A stretch of 46,868 nucleotides of DNA, from contig JBHLQK010000001.1 in assembly GCA_048884925.1 (NCBI GenBank), forward strand, positions 1-46,868, written 5' to 3'. A program made the translations under genes and the position numbers. The notes beneath the pieces were generated by a model. That model saw only the letters and a list, made by a program, of their open reading frames with translations, was not told where the DNA came from and made no database searches. Positions 12,694 through 46,496 of this stretch are shown piece after piece (position 1 is the first letter of the stretch; every line of letters begins with the position of its first letter). The stretch comes from Candidatus Thorarchaeota archaeon. GTDB lineage: Archaea > Asgardarchaeota > Thorarchaeia > Thorarchaeales > Thorarchaeaceae.

Positions 12694-12856
12694 GATTATT
12701 CCGAACACTCCGGATTTGGTCCTAGTGATGTCACACGACTCTCACACTATGTCTGTGGGGTCAGATATTAAAACCCGCTCTCGTTAGTTGTGAGTGGTCC
12801 TTTTTAACTCTGCCAGAGCTGTGTAGGATTTGTCCGAGTTGTAATTTATGAGGATT

Positions 12857-13417: not shown

Positions 13418-13611
13418 GTACACACTTATCGATTGAGTGGCATACCATAAAGAGCTTGTTCTAGAATACGGAAATATAGTGCTCCTTTTAGTCCAGTAAG
13501 AGTGTTCTATGGTAGAGTAAGGTTATAGCTTCAAGTGAATCGATGCTTCCGGAGAAGCTTTTAAGAGCACTAGAAGATTGTCACCGCAGTCTACGACGGG
13601 ATGGGAATCGA

Positions 13612-14568: not shown

Positions 14569-15785
14569 ATCACAAGAACCTACCGTGGCCAGAGCTTCAT
14601 CGACCTACAAGCCTCACACAGCTCGCTGGAAATGCCGATACGATAAGAGAACTGGAGGAATGGATTCAGGCTTGGATTAATGGAGCATCTAGCAGAAGAG
14701 CTGCGTTGTTGATTGGTCCTCCAGGAGTAGGAAAGACTGCATCTGTGGGAGCACTTTCTCATGATTACGACTTGGAACTTGTGGAGTTCAATTCCAGTGA
14801 TAAACGGAATAAGGGAAGTATCGAAAATCAGGTCTGGAAAGCGGCAACACAGCAGACGTTGGATGGTAGACTTCGTCTTCTTCTCTTGGACGAGGTGGAT
14901 GGACTTTCCGGAACCAGTGATCGGGGAGGAGTCGGTGCAATCCTGAAAATCATCGAGGATGCTGTACATCCCATCATAATGACTGCAAATGATCCAAACA
15001 GTCCACGACTCAAGGATTTGCTGAAAATCTGCAAGGTGTTTAGATTCGAACCAATTGAACCAAATGAAATGGTACCTGTCATTAGAGGGATTGCATCAGC
15101 ACATGATTCCTTATTTTCCGATGAGGTATTAGAGGGAATTGTAGATAAGGCTGGAGGCGACCTTCGGGCTGCAATATCCGATCTTGAAACACTCTCTGTA
15201 AGCGGTCGTACAACAGATGAGGGGTTGCCGTCTCGTGACGTACGTCGTGAGGTTAGTGAAGCTTTTGCACGATTGTTTATGACTACAGACCCAGAAGCAG
15301 CCAAACGCGTTATTTCGGAACTAGATATAGACTACAATCAACTGCTTCTGTGGCTTGAAGAAAATGCCCATCTTCATCTCACAACTCCAGAAGAGCTTGA
15401 TCAAGGATTTGAGTATCTATCACTTGCTGACTTATCACTTGGAAGAATTTGGAAACGTCAGAACTGGAAGTTACTGGCCTATGTATATGACTTTCTTGCG
15501 ATTGGGATGTCAACAAGCAGAAGAGTAACACCTTATAGAATAGTTAAATATTCTCAGCCATCCTGGCCAATGCTAATTTGGCGTGGGAATAGAGTGCGTG
15601 ACAAGGAATCAGACTTCCTTCTCCAAATTACTAGAATCACATCGGTTTCAAAGAGTAGAGCCGCACGTGCCTACAAAGATGCGATACTTGACATAGTCAA
15701 ACAAAATCCCAGATTGAAGGACGTCTTTTCGAACTGGCTTGAGATTAAGAAGGGCTTCTTTGATGAAAGAAGTAGTCGTCGCTGA
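14565..15785 (+). CDS. rfcL: replication factor C large subunit
   Basis: GPPGVGKT, NSSDKR (NASD-like), LLLDEVDG, TANDP. Its start overlaps the rfcS stop (ATGA). Confidence 0.8.
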   Translation: MNHKNLPWPELHRPTSLTQLAGNADTIRELEEWIQAWINGASSRRAALLIGPPGVGKTASVGALSHDYDLELVEFNSSDKRNKGSIENQVWKAATQQTLDGRLRLLLLDEVDGLSGTSDRGGVGAILKIIEDAVHPIIMTANDPNSPRLKDLLKICKVFRFEPIEPNEMVPVIRGIASAHDSLFSDEVLEGIVDKAGGDLRAAISDLETLSVSGRTTDEGLPSRDVRREVSEAFARLFMTTDPEAAKRVISELDIDYNQLLLWLEENAHLHLTTPEELDQGFEYLSLADLSLGRIWKRQNWKLLAYVYDFLAIGMSTSRRVTPYRIVKYSQPSWPMLIWRGNRVRDKESDFLLQITRITSVSKSRAARAYKDAILDIVKQNPRLKDVFSNWLEIKKGFFDERSSRR

Positions 15786-16584
15786 TGGCATTTACGACGC
15801 GTGTGGACCTCCTGAGATGATTCAGATGGACACTCAATTGCTTTCGAATCCTTGAAAGAGCATACTTGCTAGTAGTCATTCGGATAGGAACTGCAGTTTC
15901 CACTAGTACTAGACATTCTGGTGGAGCTGGTTCAATCCCTCCTGGAATTATGCCAGGGCCATTGAGATGATTTGAGAACGTTTGCATATCCATTTCACCG
16001 ATGCCGATCTGTATGAGCATAGATACCGTCTTTCTGATTAGCTTCCAGAGGAAATTTGTACCAAAGATGTCCATTGTAAGACCAGTATCTGATTCAAGAA
16101 GACATGCATTGAGAATGGTAGTTGTGGTTGGCCTATCTCCATCTGGTTTGGAAAACAGGGAAAAATCGCGGGTTCCTGATAAGAGCTGTACTGCGTTTCT
16201 CATTGATTGTAGATATACCTCCCTTGAATCTAAATCGAAGTAGTATCTATAATGTCTCATAAGTACATCATATCGTGGATTAAAGTTGGCTGGCACTACT
16301 GCAGATGCCCATAAAGCAATATCAGACGGGAGATATCGATTTACTTTGTCAATGTTGAGTTTCCTTTCTGTTTTTATCGATACAATTTGACCTATACTAT
16401 GTACGCCACGGTCAGTACGACCCGATAATTGGACTGTCTGAGTAGAGTAATCGGTTTCACTCTGTATGTCCCATTGGTTTAGCGCGTCAATGAGTTCGCC
16501 CTGTACTGTGAGGAGGTTAGGTTGAAATTGAGACCCATAGTAACGATCTCCAAGATAGAAAAGACGTGCAATATAAGAGTTCAA
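15745..16584 (-). CDS. truA: tRNA pseudouridine(38-40) synthase TruA/Pus1-like
   Basis: YLGDRYYGSQ.Q and the catalytic GRTDRGVHSIGQ motif. TTG start. Its 3' end overlaps the rfcL 3' end by 41 nt (convergent). Confidence 0.85.
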   Translation of the reverse strand: MNSYIARLFYLGDRYYGSQFQPNLLTVQGELIDALNQWDIQSETDYSTQTVQLSGRTDRGVHSIGQIVSIKTERKLNIDKVNRYLPSDIALWASAVVPANFNPRYDVLMRHYRYYFDLDSREVYLQSMRNAVQLLSGTRDFSLFSKPDGDRPTTTTILNACLLESDTGLTMDIFGTNFLWKLIRKTVSMLIQIGIGEMDMQTFSNHLNGPGIIPGGIEPAPPECLVLVETAVPIRMTTSKYALSRIRKQLSVHLNHLRRSTRVVNAISDDYFFHQRSPS

Positions 16585-16600
16585 CTGATGGCCCTCTTAG

Positions 16601-16906
16601 TTATGACTGCCATAGTCCAAACAGATTTCGCAAGGCTCGCGCCCTGTGGTCCTCTATTCGATAGCGGTAGATTTTGATCCGCCCGAACATCTTCTCCTCG
16701 ACTAGACCGGATTCGATAAGCACTTCGAGATGTGATTTGGTCGAGCTATGATTCAAAGAAACTCTCCTGCAGAGTTCGGATATATTCAGCTCGCTGGAAG
16801 TAGCCAGCTCTTTTAGTATCTTGATTCTCCCTCTCGAAGAGAATAGCTCCTCGATTGGCACTCGAAACCTATCATCAGCGTTATTCAAAATCATGAAAAC
16901 CCCCAT
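16601..16906 (-). CDS. small winged-helix (ArsR-like) DNA-binding protein
   Basis: About 101 aa. RGRIKILKEL...LNISELCRRVSLNHSSTKSHLEVLIESGLV is an ArsR/SmtB-type wHTH. Its ATG overlaps the cdc6 stop (TGATG). Confidence 0.7.
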   Translation of the reverse strand: MGVFMILNNADDRFRVPIEELFSSRGRIKILKELATSSELNISELCRRVSLNHSSTKSHLEVLIESGLVEEKMFGRIKIYRYRIEDHRARALRNLFGLWQS

Positions 16907-18099
16907 CAAGTAAGCAAGTCGAGTAGATGCTGTTCTAACATTTCAGCTGGTACATCAGAGAGTCCTATCAGAGTTGTCTGGCCTCTCTGTCCAACACCAG
17001 AACGTTTTGTATCTAGAAGTCCATGAGCATTTAGATCTTGGACCCACTCCCAGACCTGGGTATGAGCCCTTGGCTCTTCGTTGTACTCCTCACATATCGG
17101 ATGATACATCTCTTCGAGCTCGCCCATTGTGATATAGGCACCCCGATTCTCCTTGAGTTGTCTTGCGGCTGCTAGAAGTAGAAGCATGTTCTGTCGTGGA
17201 AGAGCCGCAAACAGCTCCTTCCTCAATTCAGGATGTGTGTCGGCCTTAGCCTTACGGGCATAATCAGGAATCACTTTTCTGGAATTTTCACTGTCAGCCT
17301 GCTTCCCTGCACGCCATAGAAGTTCGATTGCATAACGAGCATCTCCACGTTCTGATGCAATGTCACAGATGAGTTGTAGTGTTTCATCCATGACTACATC
17401 GTGGTCGAATGCAATGTCAGCTCGCCCCTTTAGAATGTCATATAGAGCGTCAGAGGTGTATTGGTCAAACCGGAGAACGTTTCGCTGAAGTGTACTTAAT
17501 GTGCTTTGGTCCAGTATACTCTCATCGAGAGGTATCTTTCTTCCCACTCCTATCACGGAAAGACGCTGAGGCGCATTCAATCGATCATCCATTAGTCGGG
17601 TCAAGTCGTAGAGAATGTCGGCACCTCTCTGTTTAATGAAATAGTCGAGTTCGTCAAGTATTAGTAGAAGATACTTGTCTTCTTCATCAAGTACCTCAAC
17701 AACCATTTGGAGGATTTCTTCCGGTGAGTGACCTCGCCGAGGAAATCTTGGTTTAAACTCCCTCAGCATCCGCAGATACACAAGATAGGTGCTCTTGTTC
17801 ACTCGGCAATTTATGTGCAGATTGTGCAGATTTATGCCCCGTCGGGTTGCTGCTTTTACCATTTGATCCGCGAAACGCTTAGTCACAGCTGTTTTTCCAG
17901 TTCCTACTGGACCTTCAATGATGAACTTCTGACTTGTATGGCCTGGAGAGGCGATTAGTGTCTTGAAACTTTGAGCAAGTGTTCTTAACTCAGGCTCCCG
18001 ATGTGGAAGGGTCTCAGGAACATAATCGATGGAAAGCAATTGCTCCGATTTGAATACACTCTGTCGACTCAGTTCGTCTTCCACATAGTCATGCGTCAT
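16906..18099 (-). CDS. cdc6: Orc1/Cdc6 replication initiator
   Basis: 397 aa. LPHREPEL, Walker A GPVGTGKT, Walker B LILDELD, and a C-terminal winged helix (GRGGQTTLIGL-like RSGVGQRGQTTLIGL). Confidence 0.9.
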   Translation of the reverse strand: MTHDYVEDELSRQSVFKSEQLLSIDYVPETLPHREPELRTLAQSFKTLIASPGHTSQKFIIEGPVGTGKTAVTKRFADQMVKAATRRGINLHNLHINCRVNKSTYLVYLRMLREFKPRFPRRGHSPEEILQMVVEVLDEEDKYLLLILDELDYFIKQRGADILYDLTRLMDDRLNAPQRLSVIGVGRKIPLDESILDQSTLSTLQRNVLRFDQYTSDALYDILKGRADIAFDHDVVMDETLQLICDIASERGDARYAIELLWRAGKQADSENSRKVIPDYARKAKADTHPELRKELFAALPRQNMLLLLAAARQLKENRGAYITMGELEEMYHPICEEYNEEPRAHTQVWEWVQDLNAHGLLDTKRSGVGQRGQTTLIGLSDVPAEMLEQHLLDLLT

Positions 18100-18321: not shown

Positions 18322-18425
18322 TGCGGCCGCCGGGATTATCTCGACAGCCGATAGTCGTCTGCCGATTCGAACCCGGGTTGGAGGCTTGGGAGGCCTCCGT
18401 CCTAACCAAGCTAGACTACGGCCGC
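18322..18425 (-). tRNA. tRNA-Gly (anticodon CCC) with a roughly 30-nt non-canonical intron in or next to the T-loop; CCA not encoded
   Basis: Minus strand reads GCGGCCG TA GTCT AGCTTGGTTA GGAC G GAGGC CTCCCAA GCCTC CAAC CCGGG TTCGAAT [about 30 nt] CCCGG CGGCCGC A. All stems pair once the insertion is removed. Confidence 0.8.
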
Positions 18426-18536
18426 TGAAGGGGTCATCCTTACGGTGCTTGATAAAAGACTATCGGCAAACCGAAATGCTCCAAGTCAATGCTTATCAAG
18501 GACTTATGGAAAAGCCGGCCCTGAGGATTATACTTC

Positions 18537-22019: not shown

Positions 22020-23057
22020 GTGTGGTCTTTGATTGATGAAACATTCGAGGCTATTCAAAACGAGTCTTGGTCCTGTCCTGACTGTTCAGGTCTATTGACA
22101 GCGAACCAGGGCTATATAGTATGTGTAGAATGTGGTTTGGTGATTTCTAGAGAATACGTGTCACCTACCTATCAAATGGGTGAAAAGGTATCTGACAATG
22201 CACCTGAAGCAAGCGTATACGTTTCTCTTGGCAATCGTATGCATATTGTTGATGGACTGGGGAGCTATATTGGCTTTCATAAGGATAGATACTTTCAGGA
22301 TGCACATGGTCAGACTCTCACAGCACGGTCTCAGAAGAAATTCAAGCGGCTTAAGATGATTTACAGCATGCGAATACGGATTGGCAGAAACGAAGCAAAA
22401 TATAGAGCTCTCAGAACACTCAATCATGTTTCAAAGCTGCTTATGTTAAACGAACAAGTCCGTGATCGCACAGCCTATCTCTACAAGAAAATATCCTCTG
22501 AGTCTTCAGAGAAGATTAACAATAACATCCTGCTTGTAGCTGTATGTCTTCTAATGGCTGTGAGAGAGTTCAAGGATGGAGCGCCAATAACCTTGGACGA
22601 GATAGCTAATACCTTCGAAAAATGTGGACATCGTGTGAACGTCAGGGCTATTGTAAGAGAAGCGCTGAAACTCAAATCACTAACAGGTGTTGCTCCTGAG
22701 ATTCGTCGTCCAGAAGACTATGTACCAAGAGTTCTGTCTATGTTGATGAACAGTGAAAAGGTGCTCAAGAAGGTGACAGCTCGTGGATGGAATCTGAAGA
22801 TGTATGAGAATGCTCTCAGAGACAAAATCCTTGAGGTTCTTGATATGATACCGACCTCTAGAAGAGGAGGACGGAATCCATACATATTCACTGTTTCTGC
22901 AGCTTACGCAAGCGACCGTCTAATTGCAGATGATTATGGAAAACGGTCCGTGCTTACTCAGAAGCTCACTTCAGAAGCTACTGAAGTCGCCGAATACAGC
23001 ATTCGAGATCACTTTGGAATGATGAAGAAAGTGATTGCTTTGGCTTCTCCAACATAG
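22020..23057 (+). CDS. divergent transcription factor B (TFIIB-like) paralogue
   Basis: N-terminal zinc ribbon CPDCSG...VCVECG, then two cyclin-like repeats (ALRTLNHVSKLL...AVCLLMAVRE...ITLDEIANTF). GTG start. The B-reader region does not look canonical. Confidence 0.75.
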   Translation: MWSLIDETFEAIQNESWSCPDCSGLLTANQGYIVCVECGLVISREYVSPTYQMGEKVSDNAPEASVYVSLGNRMHIVDGLGSYIGFHKDRYFQDAHGQTLTARSQKKFKRLKMIYSMRIRIGRNEAKYRALRTLNHVSKLLMLNEQVRDRTAYLYKKISSESSEKINNNILLVAVCLLMAVREFKDGAPITLDEIANTFEKCGHRVNVRAIVREALKLKSLTGVAPEIRRPEDYVPRVLSMLMNSEKVLKKVTARGWNLKMYENALRDKILEVLDMIPTSRRGGRNPYIFTVSAAYASDRLIADDYGKRSVLTQKLTSEATEVAEYSIRDHFGMMKKVIALASPT

Positions 23058-25178: not shown

Positions 25179-25285
25179 GCTCCGGTAGATGCCTCATGAA
25201 ACCATGATGCAACCGTATGTAGTCCGGCCCAGCATGAGGGACTCTCGATCCCTCGACCCGGGTTCAAATCCCGGCCGGAGCACCA
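25179..25285 (+). tRNA. tRNA-Glu (anticodon CTC) with a roughly 29-nt non-canonical intron in the D-arm region, CCA encoded
   Basis: GCTCCGG TA G[about 29 nt]TGT AGTCCGGCCCA GCAT G AGGGA CTCTCGA TCCCT CGAC CCGGG TTCAAAT CCCGG CCGGAGC A CCA. The inserted segment folds as TGC-C-TCATG AAAC CATGA-T-GCA. The exact splice points are ambiguous by 1-2 nt. Confidence 0.8.
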
Positions 25286-32147: not shown

Positions 32148-32159
32148 GAACACGTGTTC
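32148..32159. promoter_or_regulatory. perfect palindrome GAACACGTGTTC, copy 2 (14 bp with its G/C flanks, 32147-32160)
   Basis: Exact match, in the divergent IPK / S10 intergenic region. Confidence 0.7.
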
Positions 32160-36033: not shown

Positions 36034-37059
36034 ATGAATTCTTTGAGTACTGTACCTATTGAAGGTTATTTCATTATGACCAATGATGGTCTTTTATTCG
36101 AGGTTAAAGGCGTCATCCATCCCAAAAACAGGATTATCGCATATCTAAGATACATCCAAGATGAAGAGGGAGACCGCCAGTCAGAAAGGGGTGTTAAATT
36201 CAGAAAAGTGTACAACCTGAGTGATCGAAACGAGATCCTCCGCACAAAATATCAACAGTATCTCTGGTTCGATGAGAAACGTGGACAACAATTTCAAGCA
36301 GTCCCGATAGAACGTATCTCATTTGTTTTGAATCCAACAGACGGCCTGCGACAGCTTCTCGATATGGGATCACATGTCACAGATTTACAGAGGGCTTCTT
36401 GCAGTCTTGCTGAACTCCTTGTAGATAAGGCTGATTTGGATTGGTCAGACATTGGAATCACAGGGTCTCAACTTGTTGGACTTCCAAGTAAAAAGTCTGA
36501 CATAGACCTCGTCGTTTTCGGGTCAAAACCTGCAAGAAAGATTCACAGTTTACTTAAGGCCAAATTGGATTCATTCCTAGAAATAGAACAGTACCATGGC
36601 GACCGATTAAAACGCCATGTGAAATTCAGATGGGAAAAACACGAACAATGGATGAAACTATTACAGATGATTGAAAGCCAGAAAGTCTTCCAAGGATTGT
36701 TCAGGTCATATGACTTTTTCATCAGAGCAGTCAAGCTTCCTGAAGAGATAGATTACAATTATGAAGATCTGGTGATTCGAGATGAAGGCATTCAAACAGT
36801 AAGCTGTGTCGTTGTGGATGACTCTGATTCGATATTCACTCCGTGCATTTATACTGTAGAATCTGACGATATGACCGAACTACAGAATCTGATTAGCTTT
36901 CGTGGGAGGTTCACAGAACATGTTTTCGCAGGTGAAACAGTTGAAGCACGAGGAAAGCTAGAAGTGGTGACCAATTCGAACACAAATGAATCGTTCACTC
37001 AGTTGGTCCTTGGAGAGGATCCATTGGACTATCTGATGCCAATTAAGGACATTCACTAA
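36034..37059 (+). CDS. pol-beta-superfamily nucleotidyltransferase with OB-like C-terminal domain (archaeal COG1665-like, tentative)
   Basis: GITGSQLVGLPSKKSDIDLVVFG is the G[SG]-x(9-13)-D-x-D NTase signature. The C-terminus has GETVEARGKLEVV beta-rich sequence. Confidence 0.55.
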   Translation: MNSLSTVPIEGYFIMTNDGLLFEVKGVIHPKNRIIAYLRYIQDEEGDRQSERGVKFRKVYNLSDRNEILRTKYQQYLWFDEKRGQQFQAVPIERISFVLNPTDGLRQLLDMGSHVTDLQRASCSLAELLVDKADLDWSDIGITGSQLVGLPSKKSDIDLVVFGSKPARKIHSLLKAKLDSFLEIEQYHGDRLKRHVKFRWEKHEQWMKLLQMIESQKVFQGLFRSYDFFIRAVKLPEEIDYNYEDLVIRDEGIQTVSCVVVDDSDSIFTPCIYTVESDDMTELQNLISFRGRFTEHVFAGETVEARGKLEVVTNSNTNESFTQLVLGEDPLDYLMPIKDIH

Positions 37060-37502
37060 AGATAACGCATTCACTTCATTAACAAGTTTTCACAGTGATT
37101 ATGTGTGAATGGCGCCCTTTTTGTGAACAGCTTTAGCGAAAGAGTGTTCAAAGGGTCTTAAACGGTGCAAGAAGAAATCATAACCCTCCTTAGGTGTGTG
37201 AATGAAGCCACCCCTTGACTTCCAGTGGAACTGGACAAGAAGAGATATGAAATGCCTATCACCTCATTCACAAAGCACATATTCTAGTGAATAGGAGATG
37301 GTTTGAACAATACCCTCCTTTTTGAAAAATAAGAGCTCATAACGCTTCTTTTCTCATTTATTGACTGCACAAGCTGCCAGCACACAGATATCAATACGGA
37401 CGTGTTCTGAATACGTATAGGCGCATTATGTTGCCGTTATCTCAGTATTGCTAATTCACATACTCACACTTATTTGGTTGCAGTCTGTAGTTCGTTGTGA
37501 AT
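37051..37502. repeat. cluster of eight GTGAAT/ATTCAC hexamers (mostly TGTGAAT/ATTCACA)
   Basis: ATTCAC at 37051, 37069, 37266 and 37454. GTGAAT at 37105, 37198, 37287 and 37497. About 0.2 copies would be expected by chance in 450 bp. Confidence 0.6.
37209..37230 (-). other. origin-recognition-box (ORB)-like element, copy B
   Basis: Minus strand reads TTCCACTGGAAGTCAAGGGGTG, which is 19/22 identical to the copy at 41424-41445. It has the same TCCA-NN-GGAA / 4 nt / GGGGT layout as archaeal Orc1/Cdc6 ORBs. Confidence 0.55.
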
Positions 37503-38170
37503 ATTATAGTGGGTATGAATGCCCGAAGGTCTTGGTGGAATACTTGAAGTCTGAAGATCGTACAAATTACGTCTATCGATTCACATACAATTCGGGACCA
37601 GGACTGAGAGAGGTATTCCAGTGTAAGTATGTCAAGCCTGATGAGGCATTGACCAGATTCCAGAGAATTCTGTCCTTGACCGATGAACCCTTTGATTTCA
37701 AAATTGTAGTGATTGATGAATCAAAAAGAGAGGAGTCTAGTTTTGAAGTAGAGGGTGGTAGTGTAAAGGAAATGATTGAGAAGTTTAGAGTTTTCTTGGA
37801 AGCAAGTACGGGCATCTTGTTTGTAGAAGAAAAGGAAGATGTCGAGGTTGAGTTTGAGGAAATTAACTTCGAATCGATGAGTAGCTTTGAAAAAATGCAC
37901 ATAGTAATTTATGCATCATTCAAACATGGAAAATTCTCCTCACTTGACGTTGCTGAGATATATGAAGCAACATTCAATGAAGATTTGCCAAAGAGTACCG
38001 CATCTACATACCTGGCTAGAATGTGGAATGATGATAAGGGGCATCTTGAAAGATACGGCAATCGTTCCGGCTATACATACAGACTCAAGACAGAAATTTC
38101 AGAGGTTCAGAAAGAAACTGAAAGAGCCGAAGATATTCTTGCTTCGATTCAGATGCATGTTGGTAAATAG
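37448..38170 (+). CDS. hypothetical protein with C-terminal winged-helix domain
   Basis: 240-aa ORF with no in-frame ATG near the 5' end (TTG at 37448 or 37475). An acidic linker (EEKEDVEVEFEE) is followed by LDVAEIYEAT...STASTYLARMW..GHLERYG..GYTYRLK, which is wHTH-like. Confidence 0.5.
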   Translation: MLIHILTLIWLQSVVRCEYYSGYECPKVLVEYLKSEDRTNYVYRFTYNSGPGLREVFQCKYVKPDEALTRFQRILSLTDEPFDFKIVVIDESKREESSFEVEGGSVKEMIEKFRVFLEASTGILFVEEKEDVEVEFEEINFESMSSFEKMHIVIYASFKHGKFSSLDVAEIYEATFNEDLPKSTASTYLARMWNDDKGHLERYGNRSGYTYRLKTEISEVQKETERAEDILASIQMHVGK

Positions 38171-38192: not shown

Positions 38193-39512
38193 CTATAGCT
38201 TGACAGTATGTTCTTCTAATCTGATATCCAGCGCTTCTAATTCCTTTAGAATTGGCTCATAGACCTCTGACATCACTGGTCGATGCACTCCAATCAAATC
38301 TATAGACCCTTCAAGAATCATCCTACTAGCGATTGCCACGGGAAGAGCAACCGTTCTAGACATGGAAGAATCACCGTTAGGTATGCCGTAGTCAATCATT
38401 GTAGACGTGATTTTCTCTTTTCGATCTTGATATTCCGCAATGAACTCGTGGTGCATGACAATCATGTCACGTTCACCAGGAGCATACTTCAGTTTCTGCT
38501 CAAACAGATTGCATACTGAATCGAGGTATGTTGTGACGTTAGAAGGAATCTCTTGGTTATCGAATAAACCTAGCCAGTCAAGACGCTGGATTATGGGGTC
38601 ATCGTTCTTGAGACCGATCATCCTCGCGGTAGCATCTACTGGAGATTCAGAACTATCCGCCTTGGTCAGCTCACTCATCATCTCAGCATAGGTCATTCCA
38701 GTGAAACTTCGTTCTTCAATGGATAGGAGACCAAGGTCCGCCACTTTCTTGAGCGTACTACACCAGCCAAGGTTTCTGAAAGTACCCCTTTGCATGGTCT
38801 TGGTTTCTTCGATACCGTAATAGTCAATGAAAGGCAGACTGTCACGATTGGGGTAACCCTCGAATTTTCCCATCCTAGGCACTTCCATTATTTTGTAATG
38901 ATCAAAGAGTTCAGGACCTGGGATATTGATTATTTCCCCATCATGCAAAAACTGAGCATCGTTACGACCAGCAAGAAGAACCCCTCGTGGACTCCATGAG
39001 AGCTTGTATCCGAATGGATTATCATTGGCATCCGGAGCCGGAAGACCTCCCGTGAAGGATGTCAAACTGACAATCTTCCCGCCTTGATTGTGGATATGAT
39101 CGATAATTTGCATAGCACTCATGTGATCAATGCCCGGGTCTACTCCACATTCATTTAGAATGAGGATTCCTGCGGCTCTGGCTTCTGCATCCAATTCTTT
39201 CATCTCATCAGAGATATAGGAGGTAGTGCAGAATGGTTTTTGATACTTGATAGCAACTCTGGCTGCTTTCACATGGTAAATATAGGGTAGAAGAGAACAA
39301 ACCAAATCAGCTTTCGAGGTCAGTTCATCAAGAAGATCGTCATCTGTCATTATGTTGAAAGTTACAACTTCAGCATTCTTGCACCCTTCAATGAGTAGTT
39401 CAGCTTTGCTTTTGGTTCTACTAGCGACCACAACATGAAAGCCATGATCGCTCATATACTGGACGTAAGGACGAGCCACAAGGCCTGCTCCCAGACAAAG
39501 GACTTTCTTCAT
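38193..39512 (-). CDS. saccharopine dehydrogenase/reductase (SDH half of AASS-type enzymes)
   Basis: KKVLCLGAGLVARP Rossmann motif, GVDPGIDHM, SFTGGLPAPD and YKLSWSPRGVLL. These match the SDH domain of animal/plant LKR-SDH as I recall it. Confidence 0.85.
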   Translation of the reverse strand: MKKVLCLGAGLVARPYVQYMSDHGFHVVVASRTKSKAELLIEGCKNAEVVTFNIMTDDDLLDELTSKADLVCSLLPYIYHVKAARVAIKYQKPFCTTSYISDEMKELDAEARAAGILILNECGVDPGIDHMSAMQIIDHIHNQGGKIVSLTSFTGGLPAPDANDNPFGYKLSWSPRGVLLAGRNDAQFLHDGEIINIPGPELFDHYKIMEVPRMGKFEGYPNRDSLPFIDYYGIEETKTMQRGTFRNLGWCSTLKKVADLGLLSIEERSFTGMTYAEMMSELTKADSSESPVDATARMIGLKNDDPIIQRLDWLGLFDNQEIPSNVTTYLDSVCNLFEQKLKYAPGERDMIVMHHEFIAEYQDRKEKITSTMIDYGIPNGDSSMSRTVALPVAIASRMILEGSIDLIGVHRPVMSEVYEPILKELEALDIRLEEHTVKL

Positions 39513-39514
39513 AG

Positions 39515-40831
39515 CTAGTTCTCCTCTCGTGATAGATATTCTTTCAGATACTCGTATTCTTTGGTTAAGTTTCCTTGGTATACAATCACAGCATCTTTGA
39601 GCTCTGGGGGTAGTTCGAGCTTATCAAATGGAACCGCGAAATCTGCCTTTGCCAGCGCAGGGATGTAGTCCAAAAGGGTTTCGCTAAACGAGGTTGAAGA
39701 CTCTAGTGGTAGTTCAGTGGGAAGATTATCAACAGCCATAACTACTGGTCCCTCTCCTTCCACACCAGATTCTGCTCTATTCTCTTCTACTAAGTAAGTA
39801 AAAGCAGGGCTTCCAGGATTAGTTGTTCTAACTGTGAACTCAATTGCGCCATCGACATCACAGGATATATCACCAATGACCTCGAGTCGTCGATTCTTGT
39901 CCTTCCAGTGATTTCGAATGAATTCAATTGTTATGAGGCGGGGATACTTCTCAGTCCAATAGATACAGTTCATAACAACTGCCATATATGGAACATAATC
40001 GTGAAAAACTCCCTGATACTTTGTGGCACCATATGTATAGTAGTCTTGAAGGTCAAATTCTACCCCCTGTTCTTTTGGTTTGACCATATGTTCTTCCTTG
40101 AATACACATTTGTATAGAATATTCGATTTTCGACTGGATATCTTGAATAGTTGACTTGGTTCCACCTTTTCGTAGGGTAAGATATCAAAAATTTTTTGTG
40201 CACCGCGTGAAACGTTTCCGTATCCAGCAAAGCCGACTACAAACGGAATCATGGTTTCTGGCAAGCCTACTTCTGTTATTCTTTCTCCAAGGAGTTTGAA
40301 TTGTTCCTTAAGCTCCGCAAGGTCCTTGCATTCAAGAGTAGGCTTCAAATCAGCAAAAGGATTTGGAGTAATACCCTTGAACTCTAACCGTCTTCCTAGA
40401 ACCCTAAATGTGTCAGATATCCCGGCCATTCCTGCCCAGTTACCAAAGAAAATCAGACGCCTCCCATTCTCATCAATTACACGCTCATAGTCTATGAGTG
40501 TAGCACCCACATCAATGATTTGTTGGAGCATGTCCATGTTACTTTCTTGCCCCTTGACTGTATGACTGAAAAATATGTACACTTTATCTTTCTCGAAGAA
40601 ATTGACAGGCATCTCTTTGATTCCAAGAACCACAGTAACTTCACTTCCTTTTAGGGGCTGAATCTCTGCACCTACTTTGGTGAAGTCATCAGTGGTGTAG
40701 GAACGTTGATCACTAGGTTCCACGACAAATCGAATATTGTGCTTACCTACAAGATCAGCAATATGTTTGGGTACAAGAGGTACTCTTGACTCGAACGGTT
40801 TCTCTTCACTGCGTAGTCCGATAGTGTTCAT
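39515..40831 (-). CDS. lysine-ketoglutarate reductase-like (LKR half of AASS; AlaDH/PNT fold)
   Basis: IGLRSEEKPFESRVPLVPKHI, FFSHTVKGQESNMDML, LIDYERV, FGNWAGMAG, GYGNVSRGAQ, NCIYW, ISCDVDGAIEF and VDNLPTELP parallel the human AASS LKR domain. I prefer the ATG at 40831 (AGGTAGGAG upstream). Confidence 0.8.
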   Translation of the reverse strand: MNTIGLRSEEKPFESRVPLVPKHIADLVGKHNIRFVVEPSDQRSYTTDDFTKVGAEIQPLKGSEVTVVLGIKEMPVNFFEKDKVYIFFSHTVKGQESNMDMLQQIIDVGATLIDYERVIDENGRRLIFFGNWAGMAGISDTFRVLGRRLEFKGITPNPFADLKPTLECKDLAELKEQFKLLGERITEVGLPETMIPFVVGFAGYGNVSRGAQKIFDILPYEKVEPSQLFKISSRKSNILYKCVFKEEHMVKPKEQGVEFDLQDYYTYGATKYQGVFHDYVPYMAVVMNCIYWTEKYPRLITIEFIRNHWKDKNRRLEVIGDISCDVDGAIEFTVRTTNPGSPAFTYLVEENRAESGVEGEGPVVMAVDNLPTELPLESSTSFSETLLDYIPALAKADFAVPFDKLELPPELKDAVIVYQGNLTKEYEYLKEYLSREEN

Positions 40832-40937
40832 CTGGGAGCTCCTACCTGATTGGAGAGGGTATTCCGCGTGGAACACTTCATCTGGATTAACCTTTCCATC
40901 TTAGAATCGACTATTGTATTACTAAGTCTGAAAATGC

Positions 40938-40949
40938 GAACATGTGTTC
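40938..40949. promoter_or_regulatory. near-perfect palindrome GAACATGTGTTC (one mismatch), copy 5
   Basis: Read from the sequence. It shares the 3' flank TAAT with copy 4 and lies about 107 nt upstream of the LKR start on the other strand. Confidence 0.5.
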
Positions 40950-41254
40950 TAATACTCATGCCATCTAGCTTCCTTTACATCTATGATTGTAGACGTGCAC
41001 GTGAAACCAATGCGCGGCGTGTTTCATTCACAAAGGAACTCTATGGGTATATCTATACCTGGAAAACGAAAACCGGAATTAAGCAAAGAAAAAAGGCTGG
41101 TCTCATTGATACGTCGGAAGGGGCATATGCAGTGGCAGACTCTGCAATATTGGTACCTGCTGAATACAGATCTCTGTTCGATTCCTTATTTGCATCATAC
41201 TCAGACATATTGAGAGCTAGAATATTTGAGGTGATAGGAGAAGCTCAACCATTG

Positions 41255-41266
41255 GAACACGTGTTC
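41255..41266. promoter_or_regulatory. perfect palindrome GAACACGTGTTC, copy 3
   Basis: Exact match, 12 nt to the left of ORB-like copy C. Confidence 0.7.
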
Positions 41267-41278
41267 TAGTATCCCACA

Positions 41279-41300
41279 TACCCCTTGGTTTCCATTAGAA
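41279..41300 (-). other. ORB-like element, copy C (more degenerate)
   Basis: Minus strand reads TTCTAATGGAAACCAAGGGGTA, which is 17/22 identical to copy A. It is inverted relative to copy A. Confidence 0.45.
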
Positions 41301-41368
41301 ACTTTTGAAAGTATCGATACGTTTCGAAAAAGGCAAGTATAAATAGTGGTTTGCGTAGCCCGCATTCA

Positions 41369-41423
41369 TCTCCATTTTATCATATCATATTTTCACCGCC
41401 CGGGGATCTCTCCATTTTATCAT
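41369..41423 (+). repeat. 15-bp direct repeat TCTCCATTTTATCAT x2 (41369-41383 and 41409-41423)
   Basis: Exact repeat read from the sequence. The second copy abuts ORB-like copy A. Confidence 0.8.
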
Positions 41424-41445
41424 TTCCAGTGGAAATGAAGGGGTG
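41424..41445 (+). other. ORB-like element, copy A
   Basis: TTCCAGTGGAAATGAAGGGGTG has a TCCAGTGGAAA dyad core, a 4-nt spacer and a GGGGT G-string. This is the same architecture as the Aeropyrum/Sulfolobus/Pyrococcus ORBs. Confidence 0.6.
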
Positions 41446-41497
41446 CCAGTGCATAATATCTGGGTATAGGGTACACCAATATATGCTAATATTCCTA

Positions 41498-41509
41498 GAA
41501 CACGTGTTC
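41498..41509. promoter_or_regulatory. perfect palindrome GAACACGTGTTC, copy 4 (16 bp with its TA flanks, 41496-41511)
   Basis: Exact match, 20 nt upstream of a TATA-like box and 123 nt upstream of iorA. Confidence 0.7.
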
Positions 41510-41529
41510 TAATGTAGTACATGTATTAC

Positions 41530-41539
41530 AAATATATAT
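41530..41539 (+). promoter_or_regulatory. TATA-like box (AAATATATAT) for iorAB
   Basis: AT-only decamer about 93 nt upstream of the iorA TTG start. Confidence 0.35.
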
Positions 41540-41631
41540 CTGGAGAACACTTCCAATACCACAAGGTTGATAGACCATATTACCTCCGGACGACCCGTCC
41601 CAGTTAGTTAAGGAGATCGGAGGCTAGGTGC

Positions 41632-43524
41632 TTGACCAAACCCAAAGAACTGCTAGAAGACAAAGTGGGAAAGAAATCTCTTCTTCTCGCCAATGAGGCT
41701 ATTGCACGAGGTGTTCTTGAGGCCGGGGTACGACTTGTTGCACTCTATCCTGGTACACCAAGTAGTGAGATTGGGAACAATCTAACATTCATGGCACCCC
41801 ACATACCAAACTTCTACTTCGAGTTCAGTGCCAATGAGAAAGTCGCCTTAGAAGTTGCTGGCGCTGCCGCGGTTGCAGGCGTACGATCAATGATGGTCTG
41901 TAAAGGACCAGGTCTCAATGTAGCAGCTGATCCTTTCTTTTCACTTGCATATGTAGGTGTACGTGGTGGGATGGTTATCGTGGTCGCAGATGATCCCAGT
42001 ATGTGGAGCTCTCAGAACGAGAATGACAGTAGATACTATGCGCTTATGGCTAATATGCCAATGGTTGAACCAGCTGATCCTGCCGAGGCAAAGTCGATGC
42101 TCATTGAGGCCTACGAGATATCAGAGAAGCTAGAACTTCCAGTACTACTCAGGACCACCACTCGTGTCAACCATACTAGAGCTCCGGTAGAGTTTGGTGA
42201 GATTCGAGAACGTCCTGCCACTGTGGAGTTCGAGAAGGACCCATTTCGATTTGTTCCAATCCCATCAGTTGCGAGAGAACGTCATCCGATATTACTTGAG
42301 GCCATGAAGAAAGCAATGGAAGTTTCTGAGTCAACATCCCTTAACTTCACACACGATGAGGGGGACCTTGGAATAATCACTAGTGGTGTATCATACAACT
42401 ATGTCCTTGAAGCACTCGTATCAATGGAACTCTCAGCGGAAGTTCTCAAACTTGGCATGACTCATCCAGTACCTGAAGGAAAAATCGAGGAATTCCTCAA
42501 ACGTCACAATAGGGTCGTGATTGTTGAGGAGTTAGAACCCTTCTTGGAAACCCATGCAAGAAGGATCGCTCAAATCAATAAGATATCTGTAGAGATTCTT
42601 GGAAAAGAGCAGGGTTACTTTTCCCGTGCTTTCGAGTATAGTCCAAGAATCGTAATAACCGCCTTATCTAGAATTATTAATCGTAATACAAGTATTAATT
42701 GGGAAGAGATAGACAGGAAGACTGAGGAGCTCCCTGAATTACCACCGAGACCGCCTCTTCTCTGTGCTGGATGTCCTCACAGAGCGACTTACTACGCTAT
42801 TCGGACTGCCACACGAGCAAAAGCAATCTATCCTTCAGACATAGGATGTTACACACTTAGTATAGCACCACCCCTTGAAACTGCTGATATTCTGTTTGAC
42901 ATGGGATCCTCAATCACCACAGCCTGTGGAATCGCCCGTGTCACAGGTCAGGACGTTGTGGCCACAATTGGTGACAGCACTTTCTTTGCCTCCGGACTGC
43001 CCGGGATTGCCAATGCAGTCTACAATAGTCATCCCATTAGTCTAGTAGTTCTTGATAATCGAACTACAGCAATGACCGGGCACCAACCACATCCTGGCAC
43101 TGGGTTGACTGGGATGCAAGAAAAGGTTCCACCTCTGGATATTGCAAAGATATGCAAGGGGCTGGGTGTAAATTATGTCAAGACCATTCAACCATTCGAT
43201 TCAATGGCAACCCTTGTTGCAGAAGTCAGGAAAATGGTGACATGGGTTAAAGAAAACAAGGCACCAGCAGTGATGGTGTCAATAGAACCATGTGCTCTTC
43301 TTACAGCTGCTGAACGGCGAAAAAGCGGTGAGTATCCTTCGCAATATTATGTGGATGAAGAAACATGTACGGCATGTAAACGCTGCTTGAACCGCCTGTC
43401 CTGTCCAGCGATGTATCTTGATCCTGAAACCGAAAAGGCAGTGATTGACGAAACATTGTGTAATTTATGCGGCACCTGCGTTTCAGTCTGCCCTCAAGGT
43501 GCAATTAAGCAGGAGGAGGCATAG
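41632..43524 (+). CDS. iorA: indolepyruvate:ferredoxin oxidoreductase alpha subunit
   Basis: LLANEAIARGVLEAGV...YPGTPSSEI, TPP-binding GDSTFF...LDN, and a C-terminal 2x[4Fe-4S] region (CTACKRC...CP; CNLCGTCVSVCP). TTG start after GGAG repeats. Confidence 0.9.
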   Translation: MTKPKELLEDKVGKKSLLLANEAIARGVLEAGVRLVALYPGTPSSEIGNNLTFMAPHIPNFYFEFSANEKVALEVAGAAAVAGVRSMMVCKGPGLNVAADPFFSLAYVGVRGGMVIVVADDPSMWSSQNENDSRYYALMANMPMVEPADPAEAKSMLIEAYEISEKLELPVLLRTTTRVNHTRAPVEFGEIRERPATVEFEKDPFRFVPIPSVARERHPILLEAMKKAMEVSESTSLNFTHDEGDLGIITSGVSYNYVLEALVSMELSAEVLKLGMTHPVPEGKIEEFLKRHNRVVIVEELEPFLETHARRIAQINKISVEILGKEQGYFSRAFEYSPRIVITALSRIINRNTSINWEEIDRKTEELPELPPRPPLLCAGCPHRATYYAIRTATRAKAIYPSDIGCYTLSIAPPLETADILFDMGSSITTACGIARVTGQDVVATIGDSTFFASGLPGIANAVYNSHPISLVVLDNRTTAMTGHQPHPGTGLTGMQEKVPPLDIAKICKGLGVNYVKTIQPFDSMATLVAEVRKMVTWVKENKAPAVMVSIEPCALLTAAERRKSGEYPSQYYVDEETCTACKRCLNRLSCPAMYLDPETEKAVIDETLCNLCGTCVSVCPQGAIKQEEA

Positions 43525-43526: not shown

Positions 43527-44141
43527 ATGACTCGTAATATCAGTAATACAATAAATGTTGCAATCACTGGTGTTGGAGGCCAGGGTGTCCTTACTCTTGC
43601 TGAAATTCTTGCAAGAGCTGCACTTGCGGATTCATTAAATGTTCGTGTTGGTGAGATTCATGGAATGGCTCAACGTGGAGGTCATGTCATCTGTACTGTT
43701 CGGATTGGAGATGGTGCAAAGGGACCAATAATTGATCCTGGTACTGCAAATTTACTAGTAGGTTTTGAGCCAATTGAAACTCTGAGGGAAATTCGGACCA
43801 TCGCAGAGCATGGGTACGTATTACTAAGCTCCCATATCCAGTATCCTGTGGCAGTATCGATGGGAAAAGCCAATTATCCAGAACATGAAGAAATTATCAG
43901 TAGTATAAGGAAGTTCACCACTCGTATTCTTGAGATAGATGCAATGGCCCTAGCCCAAAAGGCTGGGAGTTCCATGTCATTGAATATGGTGATGCTAGGT
44001 GGAATTCTAGGGACCGGAATCACAACAATACGTGAGAAGACAGCAATTGAAATTGTACGGACAACGTTGCCAAAGAAGTACGAAACTATCAATTTACAGG
44101 CTCTTGAGCTTGGAATGGAAGCCATCAAGTCCTTGCTCTGA
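43527..44141 (+). CDS. iorB: indolepyruvate:ferredoxin oxidoreductase beta subunit
   Basis: ITGVGGQGVLT...GEIHGMAQRGG is typical of the gamma/IorB domain. It starts 2 nt after iorA. Confidence 0.9.
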   Translation: MTRNISNTINVAITGVGGQGVLTLAEILARAALADSLNVRVGEIHGMAQRGGHVICTVRIGDGAKGPIIDPGTANLLVGFEPIETLREIRTIAEHGYVLLSSHIQYPVAVSMGKANYPEHEEIISSIRKFTTRILEIDAMALAQKAGSSMSLNMVMLGGILGTGITTIREKTAIEIVRTTLPKKYETINLQALELGMEAIKSLL

Positions 44142-44153: not shown

Positions 44154-46496
44154 CTACTCAGATTCTATTCGAGCCGCCGCAACAGCGACCTGTCCTGCTG
44201 ATATGCCACCATCACCAGGCGGCACATTCTTGTGAATGAGAGGTTTCTTTCCTTTTGAGTGAATCATATCCACAATTGCACCAGTGATAATCCGGTTCAA
44301 AGCAACACCACCTGAGAATCCTATGTGATTAATGCCCTCGTCATCAGCAACTCTACATGCCATTTCTGCAAGGGCTTGGCCAATATGTCTCTGAGCAGCA
44401 TATGCAATCTTATGAGTTGAATTTCCCTTTCCTTTCATTTCTAAAATCTGACTAATGGAATCTATTGGATTCAACTCAATTATATCATTACTTGAAACAA
44501 AGGTTGAAGCAATATTCAATTCGGATTCAATAGCATGAGCCTCGAGTTTCATAGGACACTCCGCGTCATACGAATTTTCAGAACAAATGCCCAATGCTAC
44601 TGTGACAGCATCAAGAAACCTACCAACGCTAGTACTCCGAAGAACATTGATGCGTTGGGCCATTGATTGCAAAAGGACTGACAATGTTTCCTGATCTAAA
44701 CTTGTTCCTAATGCGATAGGCTGTTCTGATACGATTGGAAAGAAGCTCTCTGATTCAAGTCTATTGCCTATGATCCCAACTAGAGATCGTGCAGCATATC
44801 TCGCAGAGAGATCTCCCCCAGGGAATGGACTAGGCTGCAATCCACCTTTTCTGATATATTCTGCCGCATTCCCAACTAGAATATCACCACCCCAACCTTC
44901 ACCACTAGGAGAATAGCCATACCCATCAGTTGTAATACAAACAATACGTGTATCAAGGTCCATATTATGGTCCGCAAGTAGTCCTGCGAGGTGTGCATGG
45001 TGGTGTTGTACACGAAACAATGGAATATTCATCTCGGAAGAGAGCTTTTCGGCAAACTCTGTGCTTAGAAACTCTGGGTGTAAGTCACATGTGATTCCAT
45101 CAATCTCAGTTACGCCAAGCAATGACCTCATATGATGAATCGCATCTCTTAGGAAGTCCATGGACTCAACACGGTCTGTGTCACCAATATGCTGAGTCAT
45201 GTATATCTTCTTGGACTTGAGAACTGCACCAGTCGATTTCTCTTCGGGTCCAACTGCAATAATTTTCAGTGAAGGATGAATATAGTCGACAGTCAAAGGT
45301 TCGGGTACATAACCTCTGGCACGTCGAATGAACACGGGATTGTCACTACCAACAAACTTGATCACTGAATCATCTGATCTCTGATGAATCCGGCGATTGT
45401 GCATCAAGAAGTAGTCTGCCACTCCGTTCAACTCAGAAGTAATCACTGATGGCTCAATATACATTGGCACACCTATAGGATTCGCACTTGTCATCACCAA
45501 AGCTTCTTCGTCGAGCTTATTGAATAAAAGATGATGAAGAGGTGCATACGGCAACATAACACCCAAGGTGTCTAATCCTGGAGATATTTCCTCAAGCGAG
45601 TCTTGAGGAATGGTCGAATCAATACGTTTCTTGACTAAGACAATAGGCTTTCGCCAAGTCTTCATAAGCTGTATTTCGTTTTCAGTAGGAACACTGAAGC
45701 GAAATATTGCATCAGTGTTCTTAGTCATGATAGCGAAGGGGCGTTGAAATCTATTCTTTCTCTCTCTTAGAATCCTGATTGGCCTACAGTCAGAGGTCTT
45801 TGTAACAAGATGCGTTCCACCTATACCATGAAGTGCTAGAACAGCATTCTGTTCTAGTAGATCTACAGTATGGGAAATACAATCAATTTCCTGGAAAAGC
45901 TCTCCATTCGCATCGTATAATCGATATCTTGGTCCACAGCTTTCACATGCTGTTGTCTGAGCATGATATCTCCGATCCACGGGACTTGTATAACCTGTAT
46001 TACAAACATTACATAGCGGAAAGTCTACCATTGTAGTATTGGGACGGTCATAGGGAAGACTGGTGATGGTCGAGTATCTAGGGCCACAGGCAGCACATGA
46101 AGTGAATGGATATTGATACCATCGTGAGTCAGGACTTTTCAGGTCCCGAACACAATCATCACAAATGGCAATATCTGGAGGTATCTCAGGTGCAGATTCG
46201 TCGCTTATCTCTGTCAATGAGCTTCTTATTGAAAATGAGTCGAAAGATTCGGTTGTTGACCGCCATTCAACACTGACCGATTCAATACGAGATATTGACG
46301 GAGGACTTGAACGAAGCTGCCTAATCAATTCCTCAATTCTAGTACGATTTCCTTCGACGACTATTTCCACACCCGCATCTCCCAGATTGAGCACATAACC
46401 TACCAATGACAGCTTGTTCGCAACTCGATAAACAAAGGGCCTGAATCCAACACCCTGGACAATACCGGTTACATGGATCTCAGCTCTATGTTTCAA
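44154..46496 (-). CDS. hypF: [NiFe]-hydrogenase maturation carbamoyltransferase HypF
   Basis: Acylphosphatase domain (VTGIVQGVGFRPFVYR), two CxxC...CxxC zinc fingers (CDDC...CAACGPRY; CNVC...CESCGPRY), a YrdC-like domain and a Kae1-like domain. TTG start. Confidence 0.95.
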   Translation of the reverse strand: MKHRAEIHVTGIVQGVGFRPFVYRVANKLSLVGYVLNLGDAGVEIVVEGNRTRIEELIRQLRSSPPSISRIESVSVEWRSTTESFDSFSIRSSLTEISDESAPEIPPDIAICDDCVRDLKSPDSRWYQYPFTSCAACGPRYSTITSLPYDRPNTTMVDFPLCNVCNTGYTSPVDRRYHAQTTACESCGPRYRLYDANGELFQEIDCISHTVDLLEQNAVLALHGIGGTHLVTKTSDCRPIRILRERKNRFQRPFAIMTKNTDAIFRFSVPTENEIQLMKTWRKPIVLVKKRIDSTIPQDSLEEISPGLDTLGVMLPYAPLHHLLFNKLDEEALVMTSANPIGVPMYIEPSVITSELNGVADYFLMHNRRIHQRSDDSVIKFVGSDNPVFIRRARGYVPEPLTVDYIHPSLKIIAVGPEEKSTGAVLKSKKIYMTQHIGDTDRVESMDFLRDAIHHMRSLLGVTEIDGITCDLHPEFLSTEFAEKLSSEMNIPLFRVQHHHAHLAGLLADHNMDLDTRIVCITTDGYGYSPSGEGWGGDILVGNAAEYIRKGGLQPSPFPGGDLSARYAARSLVGIIGNRLESESFFPIVSEQPIALGTSLDQETLSVLLQSMAQRINVLRSTSVGRFLDAVTVALGICSENSYDAECPMKLEAHAIESELNIASTFVSSNDIIELNPIDSISQILEMKGKGNSTHKIAYAAQRHIGQALAEMACRVADDEGINHIGFSGGVALNRIITGAIVDMIHSKGKKPLIHKNVPPGDGGISAGQVAVAAARIESE

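Follow-up and report, generated by a model that had tools for sequence, protein, structure and literature searches.

A candidate Orc1-1/ORB-type replication origin conserved across Thorarchaeota

Inverted origin recognition boxes (ORBs) flanking an AT-rich region are the general layout of archaeal replication origins, and an origin typically lies directly beside the gene of its initiator (PMC4010727). In Sulfolobus oriC1, inverted ORB2 and ORB3 surround an AT-rich duplex-unwinding element (DUE) within 130 bp, and both ORBs as well as the mid-spacer motif ucm are essential (PMC12141716). The same study states that ucm is bound by a small nucleoid protein with more than 300 other genomic sites and that UBP is restricted to Sulfolobales and Desulfurococcales; the authors of this UBP study asked if such factors occur in other lineages. 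In Pyrococcus furiosus, an ORB1 oligonucleotide was bound by purified Cdc6/Orc1 in gel shifts, and in vivo Cdc6 also binds a second ORB cluster, which is conserved among Thermococcales and lies inside dp1 at a distance of a few kb from oriC (PMC1904270). Here, a related arrangement is described from Thorarchaeota, in a cassette at positions 41255-41509 of contig JBHLQK010000001.1 (GenBank assembly GCA_048884925.1, Candidatus Thorarchaeota archaeon). The whole stretch that was analysed, 46,868 nt of the forward strand, is referred to as the window.

Origins of Asgard archaea appear in the literature searched as skew-inferred positions only, from few closed genomes (guesses for Odin-, Atabey- and Freyarchaeia). 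That literature reports skew as uninformative for Loki-, Heimdall- and Odinarchaeia, GC skew being absent in several Asgard classes (PMC11291895), and no description of ORB-defined origins in Asgard archaea was found in it. A preliminary description of the window had proposed a replication origin at the cassette. Sequence comparison supports this proposal through an architecture kept across the lineage, the match of the boxes to known ORBs, the presence of an Orc1-1-type initiator gene and homology to loci of Bathyarchaeia. The cassette is thus very probably the core of an Orc1-1/ORB-type (oriC1-like) chromosomal replication origin, at which initiator binding and firing are predicted.

The inverted ORB pair and its spacer

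The window holds three copies of a 22-nt box built like an ORB, in which a short linker and a G-string come after the dyad TTCCA-N-TGGAA. Two of these form an inverted pair. ORB-R (41424-41445, plus strand) reads TTCCAGTGGAAATGAAGGGGTG, with its G-string toward the right, and ORB-L (41279-41300, minus strand) reads TTCTAATGGAAACCAAGGGGTA, with its G-string toward the left, off the spacer; boxes and outward polarity are as first described. With up to three mismatches, the ORB-type 22-mer occurs three times in the 47 kb, compared to 0.00-0.02 times in shuffles of the window. Apart from those at 37.2 and 41.3-41.4 kb, motif searches found no ORB-like sites in the window, and none in the neighbourhood of cdc6. 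The first 16 nt of ORB-R, TTCCAGTGGAAATGAA, match the reverse complement of P. furiosus ORB1, TTCCAGTGGAAATGAAACTCTGGGGGGT, at 16 of 16 positions. The boxes differ after this segment, as P. furiosus ORB1 has a linker longer by 5 nt and then a longer G-string.

The two boxes enclose an AT-rich spacer of 123 bp (41301-41423), the presumed zone of duplex unwinding and MCM loading. The earlier count of 47 G+C agrees with the measured 38%, which compares with 44% in the flanks. The AT-richness attributed to the spacer therefore holds relative to its surroundings, but it is only mild in this genome, while relatives average 30%.

The pair was followed through 66 species loci (one genome contig each, from a species collection), fetched with the small open reading frame (ORF) left of the cassette as an anchor. 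In 66 of 66 loci and in the window, a minus-strand ORB and a plus-strand ORB come right after the small gene, 139-151 nt apart from start to start and separated by a spacer of 118-130 nt, mostly 123-124. Mean spacer G+C is 0.30 versus 0.44 in the flanks and is the lower value in all 66 loci and the window. Compared to the next 120 nt of non-coding DNA, the spacer is again poorer in G+C in each of the 44 full-length loci (0.284 versus 0.387). Another 21 Thorarchaeota metagenome contigs carry the ORB pair in the same context. Long contigs with the cassette include SHMX01000002.1 (592 kb, cassette near 378 kb), CAVSBO010000016.1 (290 kb), CAYYQL010000002.1 (269 kb), JAFGAR010000088.1 (268 kb) and RDOC01000002.1 (253 kb). 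All loci of sufficient length share the gene order rpS10, glmS, aminotransferase, nucleotidyltransferase, a gene for a 211-aa protein, SDH, LKR, small gene, iorA, iorB and hypF. Two contigs of one metagenome-assembled genome (MAG), Thorarchaeota SMTZ1-45 (L019 and L030), each contain a complete syntenic locus, which suggests that this bin mixes two strains or species.

A scan for the ORB motif extended over 1.13 Mb of Thorarchaeota DNA, with about 20 kb from each related genome. The motif is nearly absent outside the ORB pair and the sites of a third box, ORB3. Being almost confined to these two modules, it is not a dispersed promoter motif, and the scattering of the 22-mer over promoters that the preliminary description had allowed for was not seen within this DNA.

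Modules aligned in a common orientation yield a cassette consensus. It runs from TTAGAACACGTGTTCCAA (the left palindrome, PAL-L) over about 12 nt to ORB-L, then through about 35 variable nt to AAAAGTATAAATA and GTTT..G.AGC. These are followed by ATTTATCTCCATTTT, about 15 AT-rich variable nt, CCGCT, about 10 nt and ACTCCATTTT, and finally by ORB-R, 20-55 nt and TAGAACACGTGTTCC (the right palindrome, PAL-R). The block from AAAAGTATAAATA to ATTTATCTCCATTTT sits in the spacer of all oriented modules.

In the window, the spacer contains a core resembling a transcription factor B recognition element (BRE) and TATA box (41330-41346, plus strand; AAGGCAAGTATAAATAG), with TATAAATA at 41338-41345. This core is close to invariant in the oriented alignment of 53 modules, and its agreement with the archaeal BRE/TATA consensus suggests a promoter. 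Further along lies an ATT(C/T)ATCTCCATTTT block (41364-41383, plus strand) that is conserved in oriented modules and forms the first copy of a direct repeat. The A at 41368 is 22 nt past the TATA-like box, the usual spacing of a transcription start, and would be the putative start site. As first described, the exact 15-bp repeat TCTCCATTTTATCAT occupies 41369-41383 and 41409-41423 (plus strand); the second copy abuts ORB-R and has the family consensus form ACTCCATTTT. Exact TCTCCATTTT has 31 of its 39 matches in the 44 full-length loci inside the ORB-pair module (module B). A hint of TCTCCATTTT in the consensus of the module around ORB3 (module A) was set aside, the exact matches being those of module B. 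A 25-codon ORF running from an ATG inside ORB-R to PAL-R was likewise dismissed, as its ATG is not conserved.

A promoter-like core followed by a conserved and module-specific first 11 nt, ATCTCCATTTT, could also mean that the spacer encodes a small non-coding RNA transcribed from the TATA-like box, the ORB-like arms being part of its gene or flanking repeats. The alignment, however, offers little sign of a folded product. RNAalifold, applied to the 53 oriented modules, pairs only ORB-L with ORB-R, with a covariation term of -0.19 kcal/mol, and two-sided change occurs in just 2 of 10 predicted pairs, in 1-2 sequences each. The sequence past the putative start is AT-rich and variable, and no Rfam match was obtained in the region at gathering thresholds or at E<=1. 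A small RNA gene is accordingly an exceedingly improbable explanation.

Boundary palindromes and cassette orientation

The cassette is bracketed by two perfect copies of the palindrome GAACACGTGTTC. PAL-L (41255-41266) lies 12 nt outside ORB-L and overlaps the end of the small gene, while PAL-R (41498-41509) lies 52 nt outside ORB-R. A variant, GAACATGTGTTC, is found at 40938-40949 (PAL-0), 8 nt upstream of the ATG of the small gene. The palindrome gives 11 strand-hits in the window versus 0.48 in shuffles, and the three positions are conserved in the 66 loci, with 210 hits versus 0.4 expected. Additional perfect copies of GAACACGTGTTC occur at 7206-7217, 6 nt before the ATG of a histone-deacetylase-domain gene (7224-8351), and at 32148-32159, upstream of the rpS10 coding region. 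A DNA-binding protein with a small number of genomic targets may recognize this palindrome.

Across 88 Thorarchaeota loci from the species collection and the metagenome contigs, the cassette points toward iorA in 64 and is inverted relative to the flanking genes, pointing toward the small gene, in the remaining 24. Whichever way the cassette points, its elements strictly follow the same internal order. A neighbour-joining tree built from LKR and the small protein requires at least 7 orientation changes. The flanks of the sister loci L057 and L058 run co-linear as far as both palindromes, and the ~230 bp between them align as reverse complement only; this break of the alignment identifies the palindromes as the inversion breakpoints. 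The positions given for the palindromes in the preliminary description were right, but these elements are more than passive brackets, serving as breakpoints of at least about 7 inversions. Orientation differs in 0 of 13 pairs of loci at >=95% flank identity, in 1 of 27 at 90-95% and in 0 of 81 at 85-90%. Because orientation is stable among close relatives, the flips are rare evolutionary events and do not constitute phase variation. The tolerance of inversion fits a bidirectional origin and speaks against an element dedicated to one of the neighbouring genes.

Both orientations, breakpoints exactly at the flanking palindromes, and a BRE/TATA-like box with start-site spacing are features that an invertible promoter switch (inverton-like) would also display, driving iorAB one way and an antisense transcript of the small gene the other way. 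The constancy of orientation in close relatives contradicts such a switch, and no recombinase domain was detected among the neighbour genes scanned against Pfam. In addition, downstream of PAL-R there is a separate AT-rich TATA-like stretch for iorA, and two canonical ORBs with conserved spacing, together with ORB3, would be left unexplained. A promoter switch is therefore very unlikely.

The compact size of the cassette (~255 bp) and its inverted termini, each made of a palindrome and an ORB, are reminiscent of mobile DNA. The module could then be the origin of an integrated plasmid or virus, or an element like a miniature inverted-repeat transposable element (MITE) with terminal inverted repeats. 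The loci behave otherwise: the module occurs once per locus in fixed synteny among housekeeping genes (rpS10, glmS, LKR/SDH, iorAB, hypF) in 66 of 66 species loci, and no extra copies were found in 1.13 Mb. No integrase domain was found in the genes scanned, and the two tRNA genes found are 16-23 kb away. A mobile origin or MITE-like element has next to no likelihood.

Initiator, third ORB and related loci

The orc1/cdc6 gene at 16906-18099 (minus strand), ~23 kb from the ORB pair, presumably encodes the cognate initiator. Pfam (Cdc6_lid and Cdc6_C) and NCBIfam matches confirm the gene named in the preliminary description, with the NCBIfam ORC1-type equivalog scoring 365.7 bits versus a cutoff of 311. 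Its closest relatives in the PDB are Pyrobaculum aerophilum Cdc6 (1FNN, 1e-56), Sulfolobus Orc1-1 (2QBY_A, 3e-42) and Aeropyrum ORC1 (2V1U, 6e-37), compared to only 2e-16 for Orc1-3. Judged by these similarities, the single orc1/cdc6 gene of the window is a member of the Orc1-1 clade.

ORB3 (37209-37230, minus strand; TTCCACTGGAAGTCAAGGGGTG) lies to the left of ORB-L at a distance of 4.07 kb and precedes a winged-helix gene by 305 nt. It is present in 54 of 67 sequences, at 4.05-4.25 kb from ORB-L in 52 of these; in L035 it is further off owing to a 1.5-kb insertion. Twelve of the 13 sequences that have no ORB3 at this place extend for <4 kb on that side of the ORB pair. The insertion of ~1.5 kb in L035 (10280-11855) parts the small gene from the cassette. 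In L062 (1-6300), the block rpS10-glmS-aminotransferase-nucleotidyltransferase is inverted, with a breakpoint in the ORB3 intergenic module.

ORB3 is embedded in a conserved non-coding region, module A (37040-37480), which shows high-information blocks in a 54-sequence alignment. The hexamer GTGAAY/RTTCAC occurs here 8 times, versus 0.46 expected per 440 bp, and in 44 loci 219 of 332 matches to TGTGAAT[AG] are within module A. TTCAC-type repeats are also found upstream of homologous winged-helix genes in L077, L156 and L171.

The winged-helix gene itself (37535-38170, plus strand) encodes 211 aa from the ATG at 37535, the C-terminal half being a PadR-like winged helix-turn-helix. The protein has 302 homologues, of which those compared are >=66% identical, and a mean column identity of 78% across Thorarchaeota. 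A structural model of moderate confidence (pLDDT 68) has the secondary structure of a PadR-like winged helix plus a C-terminal helix, and Foldseek returned PadR/LmrR-type regulators with weak E-values of ~1e-3. With a profile of the protein, shorter relatives were found next to ORB clusters at five loci outside Thorarchaeota, in Bathyarchaeia and other lineages; those of Bathyarchaeia show faint Pfam WHD_MCM matches. The relative in L077 has 1246 homologues, and the named ones are from Bathyarchaeia. The family may represent unrecognised origin-associated DNA-binding proteins.

The same design was sought in metagenomes with the pattern ACCCC-N4-TTTCCA-N120-150-TGGAAA-N4-GGGGT, which matched at least 120 loci. 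Among the matches listed, 21 are Thorarchaeota loci in the context described above and at least 12 have an orc1/cdc6 gene 0-485 bp away; the ORB-pair pattern thus finds cdc6-adjacent loci. At least 66 further loci among those listed, many on marine metagenome contigs, lie 0-50 bp upstream of a beta-CASP ribonuclease gene, and no cdc6 was found near them in the DNA fetched around these loci. Separation from cdc6 is therefore not peculiar to Thorarchaeota. The preliminary description had called an origin away from orc1/cdc6 unusual; the arrangement does depart from the typical layout (PMC4010727), but the beta-CASP loci show that it is not unique.

The beta-CASP loci, which include L078, L085, L087, L099 and L119 (range L067-L186), have a G+C content of ~0.30-0.56. 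Those inspected have PcrB/GGGPS-like and FAD-protein genes on the other side, and the conserved inner motifs differ between spacer classes. These loci may be the origin of another archaeal lineage. One match, L149, is probably due to chance, its flanking ORFs lacking an archaeal context.

Three Bathyarchaeia genomes offer the closest layout. A minus-strand cdc6 gene and a plus-strand winged-helix gene diverge from an intergenic region of 620-790 bp that contains, in this order, ORB(-), ORB(+) and ORB(-). The third ORB precedes the winged-helix gene by ~195 nt and is oriented like ORB3. Given this layout and the shared third ORB, the Thorarchaeota locus reads as a rearranged cdc6-adjacent three-ORB origin. 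In the proposed rearrangement, the third ORB would have stayed with the winged-helix gene, the pair would have come to lie 4 kb downstream, and cdc6 19 kb upstream of ORB3.

Sulfolobus Orc1-2 is described as a non-initiator Orc1 and global transcription regulator (abstract of PMC9738581). The Thorarchaeota ORBs could similarly be operators through which an Orc1/Cdc6-family protein controls its neighbours (the winged-helix gene, the small gene and iorAB), or the relic of a dormant origin. The location of ORB3 ahead of a gene for a DNA-binding protein, conserved into Bathyarchaeia, and the distance of the cassette from cdc6 are compatible with this. However, a fixed AT-rich spacer of 118-130 bp throughout the lineage is the geometry of an origin and not of an operator, and at least about 7 flips against both neighbours without loss of any element would be unexpected for a promoter-proximal operator. 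That the same pattern leads to cdc6-adjacent loci in other lineages also disfavours regulation, while lineage-wide conservation speaks against decay. Operators or a relic are, on balance, unlikely.

Among the genes around the cassette, SDH (38193-39512) and LKR (39515-40876) are on the minus strand; iorA (41632-43524) and iorB (43527-44141) on the plus strand are followed by hypF (44154-46496, minus strand). The preliminary description placed an 800-bp intergenic region between LKR/SDH and iorAB. The flanking genes are right, but a conserved gene lies inside this region at 40958-41269 (plus strand), leaving ~360 bp of non-coding DNA (41270-41631). This small gene, located between PAL-0 and PAL-L, has 103 codons here and ~95 in relatives, and its stop codon overlaps the left palindrome. 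It is bracketed by two copies of the GAACAYGTGTTC palindrome, and in this genome the C-terminus of its product is extended by 7 residues that reach into the palindrome. The 92 homologues of the small protein are 52-91% identical, those with a source name all being from Thorarchaeota or Promethearchaeota, and their alignment has 23 invariant columns. This distribution by itself places the window in a Thorarchaeota (Asgard) genome. An AlphaFold2 model (pLDDT 90) shows a secondary-structure pattern of beta-alpha-beta type. Searches returned no Pfam or NCBIfam family, no sequence relative in the PDB and no significant Foldseek match in the PDB. A UBP-like identity was considered and is unsupported, as the PDB profile search and Foldseek gave nothing significant.

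The orc1/cdc6 gene is at the end of an island of replication genes (8348-18099), 23-33 kb from the ORB pair. The island comprises genes for a Hel308-like helicase (8348-10603), MCM (10621-12708), a GINS/Sld5-domain protein (12857-13423), the RFC small (13543-14568) and large (14565-15785) subunits, TruA and an ArsR-like regulator (16601-16909). Elsewhere in the window, 22020-23057 encodes a TFIIB/TFB-like protein that may be a TFB paralogue, its Pfam scores being weak, and 359-1306 encodes a Roadblock/LC7-domain protein. The tRNA finders disagree: ARAGORN reports only a tRNA-Gly(CCC) at 18352-18426 (minus strand), and Rfam at the gathering threshold only a tRNA at 25209-25282 (plus strand).

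Proposed origin function and comparison with described systems

The assignment of the cassette as an origin draws on the identity of its boxes to validated ORBs, their arrangement, conservation and locus specificity, the Orc1-1 affiliation of the initiator, and a layout homologous to that of cdc6-adjacent origins. From these features we infer Orc1 binding, MCM loading and firing, as well as roles for the core motif, the palindromes and the winged-helix protein. In the proposed mechanism, modelled on Sulfolobus oriC1 (ORB3-DUE-ORB2), monomers of Orc1/Cdc6 would bind ORB-L and ORB-R in opposite polarity. Each bound monomer would recruit an MCM hexamer onto the 123-bp AT-rich spacer, and the two helicases would end head to head, giving bidirectional replication. 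The mid-spacer core, consisting of the TATA-like box and ATCTCCATTTT, may be the binding site of a lineage-specific factor, at the same position as Sulfolobus ucm. ORB3 is presumably the displaced remainder of an ancestral three-ORB origin and could act as an auxiliary Orc1 site in the manner of Sulfolobus ORB1 or of the Pyrococcus ORB cluster in dp1. The GAACACGTGTTC palindromes would bound the cassette, whose repeated evolutionary flips a bidirectional origin could tolerate.

Several observations weigh against this assignment. The pair is not adjacent to its presumed initiator gene, which is 23 kb off where adjacency is typical (PMC4010727), and the spacer of this genome has a G+C content of just 38%. 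Cumulative GC skew peaks at ~38 kb with the wrong sign by the bacterial rule; the skew is uninformative here because this peak coincides with a change of coding strand and the window is only 47 kb long. Across the 66 loci, gene-specific bias would be confounded with replication bias, as the same dozen orthologues recur in all of them. The conserved promoter-like element of the spacer may point to transcription-related functions, and Orc1 binding and initiation at the cassette are predictions.

A more far-reaching version of the origin model can be put forward tentatively, and it is rather improbable. It holds that the cassette is a self-contained, orientation-free origin whose firing depends on more than Orc1. 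The fixation of a BRE/TATA box and a start-site motif in the MCM-loading zone suggests that TBP/TFB binding or a short transcript takes part in origin activation. The boundary palindromes (GAACACGTGTTC) may bind a further factor and mediate the rare flips of the cassette. The winged-helix protein (37535-38170), linked to origins from Bathyarchaeia to Asgard archaea, may bind the GTGAAT repeats by ORB3; if so, it would be an unrecognised origin factor comparable in role to Sulfolobus UBP or WhiP.

A sequence-defined, lineage-wide origin with three boxes and a candidate initiator would make replication initiation in Asgard archaea directly testable. It would provide a defined sequence for studying the start of replication in close archaeal relatives of eukaryotes, and would add the mid-spacer motif, the boundary palindromes and the winged-helix neighbour as candidates for accessory factors. 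It would further indicate that an origin can drift from its initiator gene and invert as a cassette.

Beyond the match to ORB1, the origin of Pyrococcus and other Thermococcales offers a precedent for ORB3, as the dp1 cluster is separated from oriC by a few kb and by genes. Pyrococcus differs in having many mini-ORBs and a cdc6 gene between two ORB clusters, whereas in Thorarchaeota there are no mini-ORB arrays and cdc6 is distant. Haloarchaeal oriC1 shares inverted ORBs with terminal G-strings around an AT-rich region and a genomic context conserved across the lineage (PMC4010727). In contrast to the Thorarchaeota cassette, its G-strings are longer and halophile-specific and the origin is adjacent to cdc6.

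Sulfolobus/Saccharolobus oriC1 shares the inverted ORBs around an AT-rich stretch of ~100-130 bp, the third ORB, a mid-spacer motif and an initiator of the Orc1-1 clade. It abuts orc1-1, whereas cdc6 of the window is 23 kb from the pair and the third ORB 4.1 kb. The likeness between the mid-spacer core and ucm is one of position only, the core being BRE/TATA-like sequence plus ATCTCCATTTT. Flanking palindromes and cassette inversions receive no mention for Sulfolobus origins in the available part of that study (PMC12141716).

The cdc6-adjacent region of Bathyarchaeia (L187, L189, L190 and L077) shares the pair with outward G-strings, a third ORB ahead of the winged-helix homologue in the same relative orientation, and TTCAC-type repeats near the winged-helix gene. 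All three ORBs of Bathyarchaeia share one intergenic region, from which cdc6 and the winged-helix gene diverge. In Thorarchaeota, by comparison, three genes separate the winged-helix gene from the pair downstream of it, and cdc6 has become detached. The distance between the paired boxes from start to start is 96-224 nt in Bathyarchaeia versus 139-151 nt in Thorarchaeota. An origin of this kind in both groups would imply that the ORB-DUE-ORB design is older than the TACK/Asgard split.

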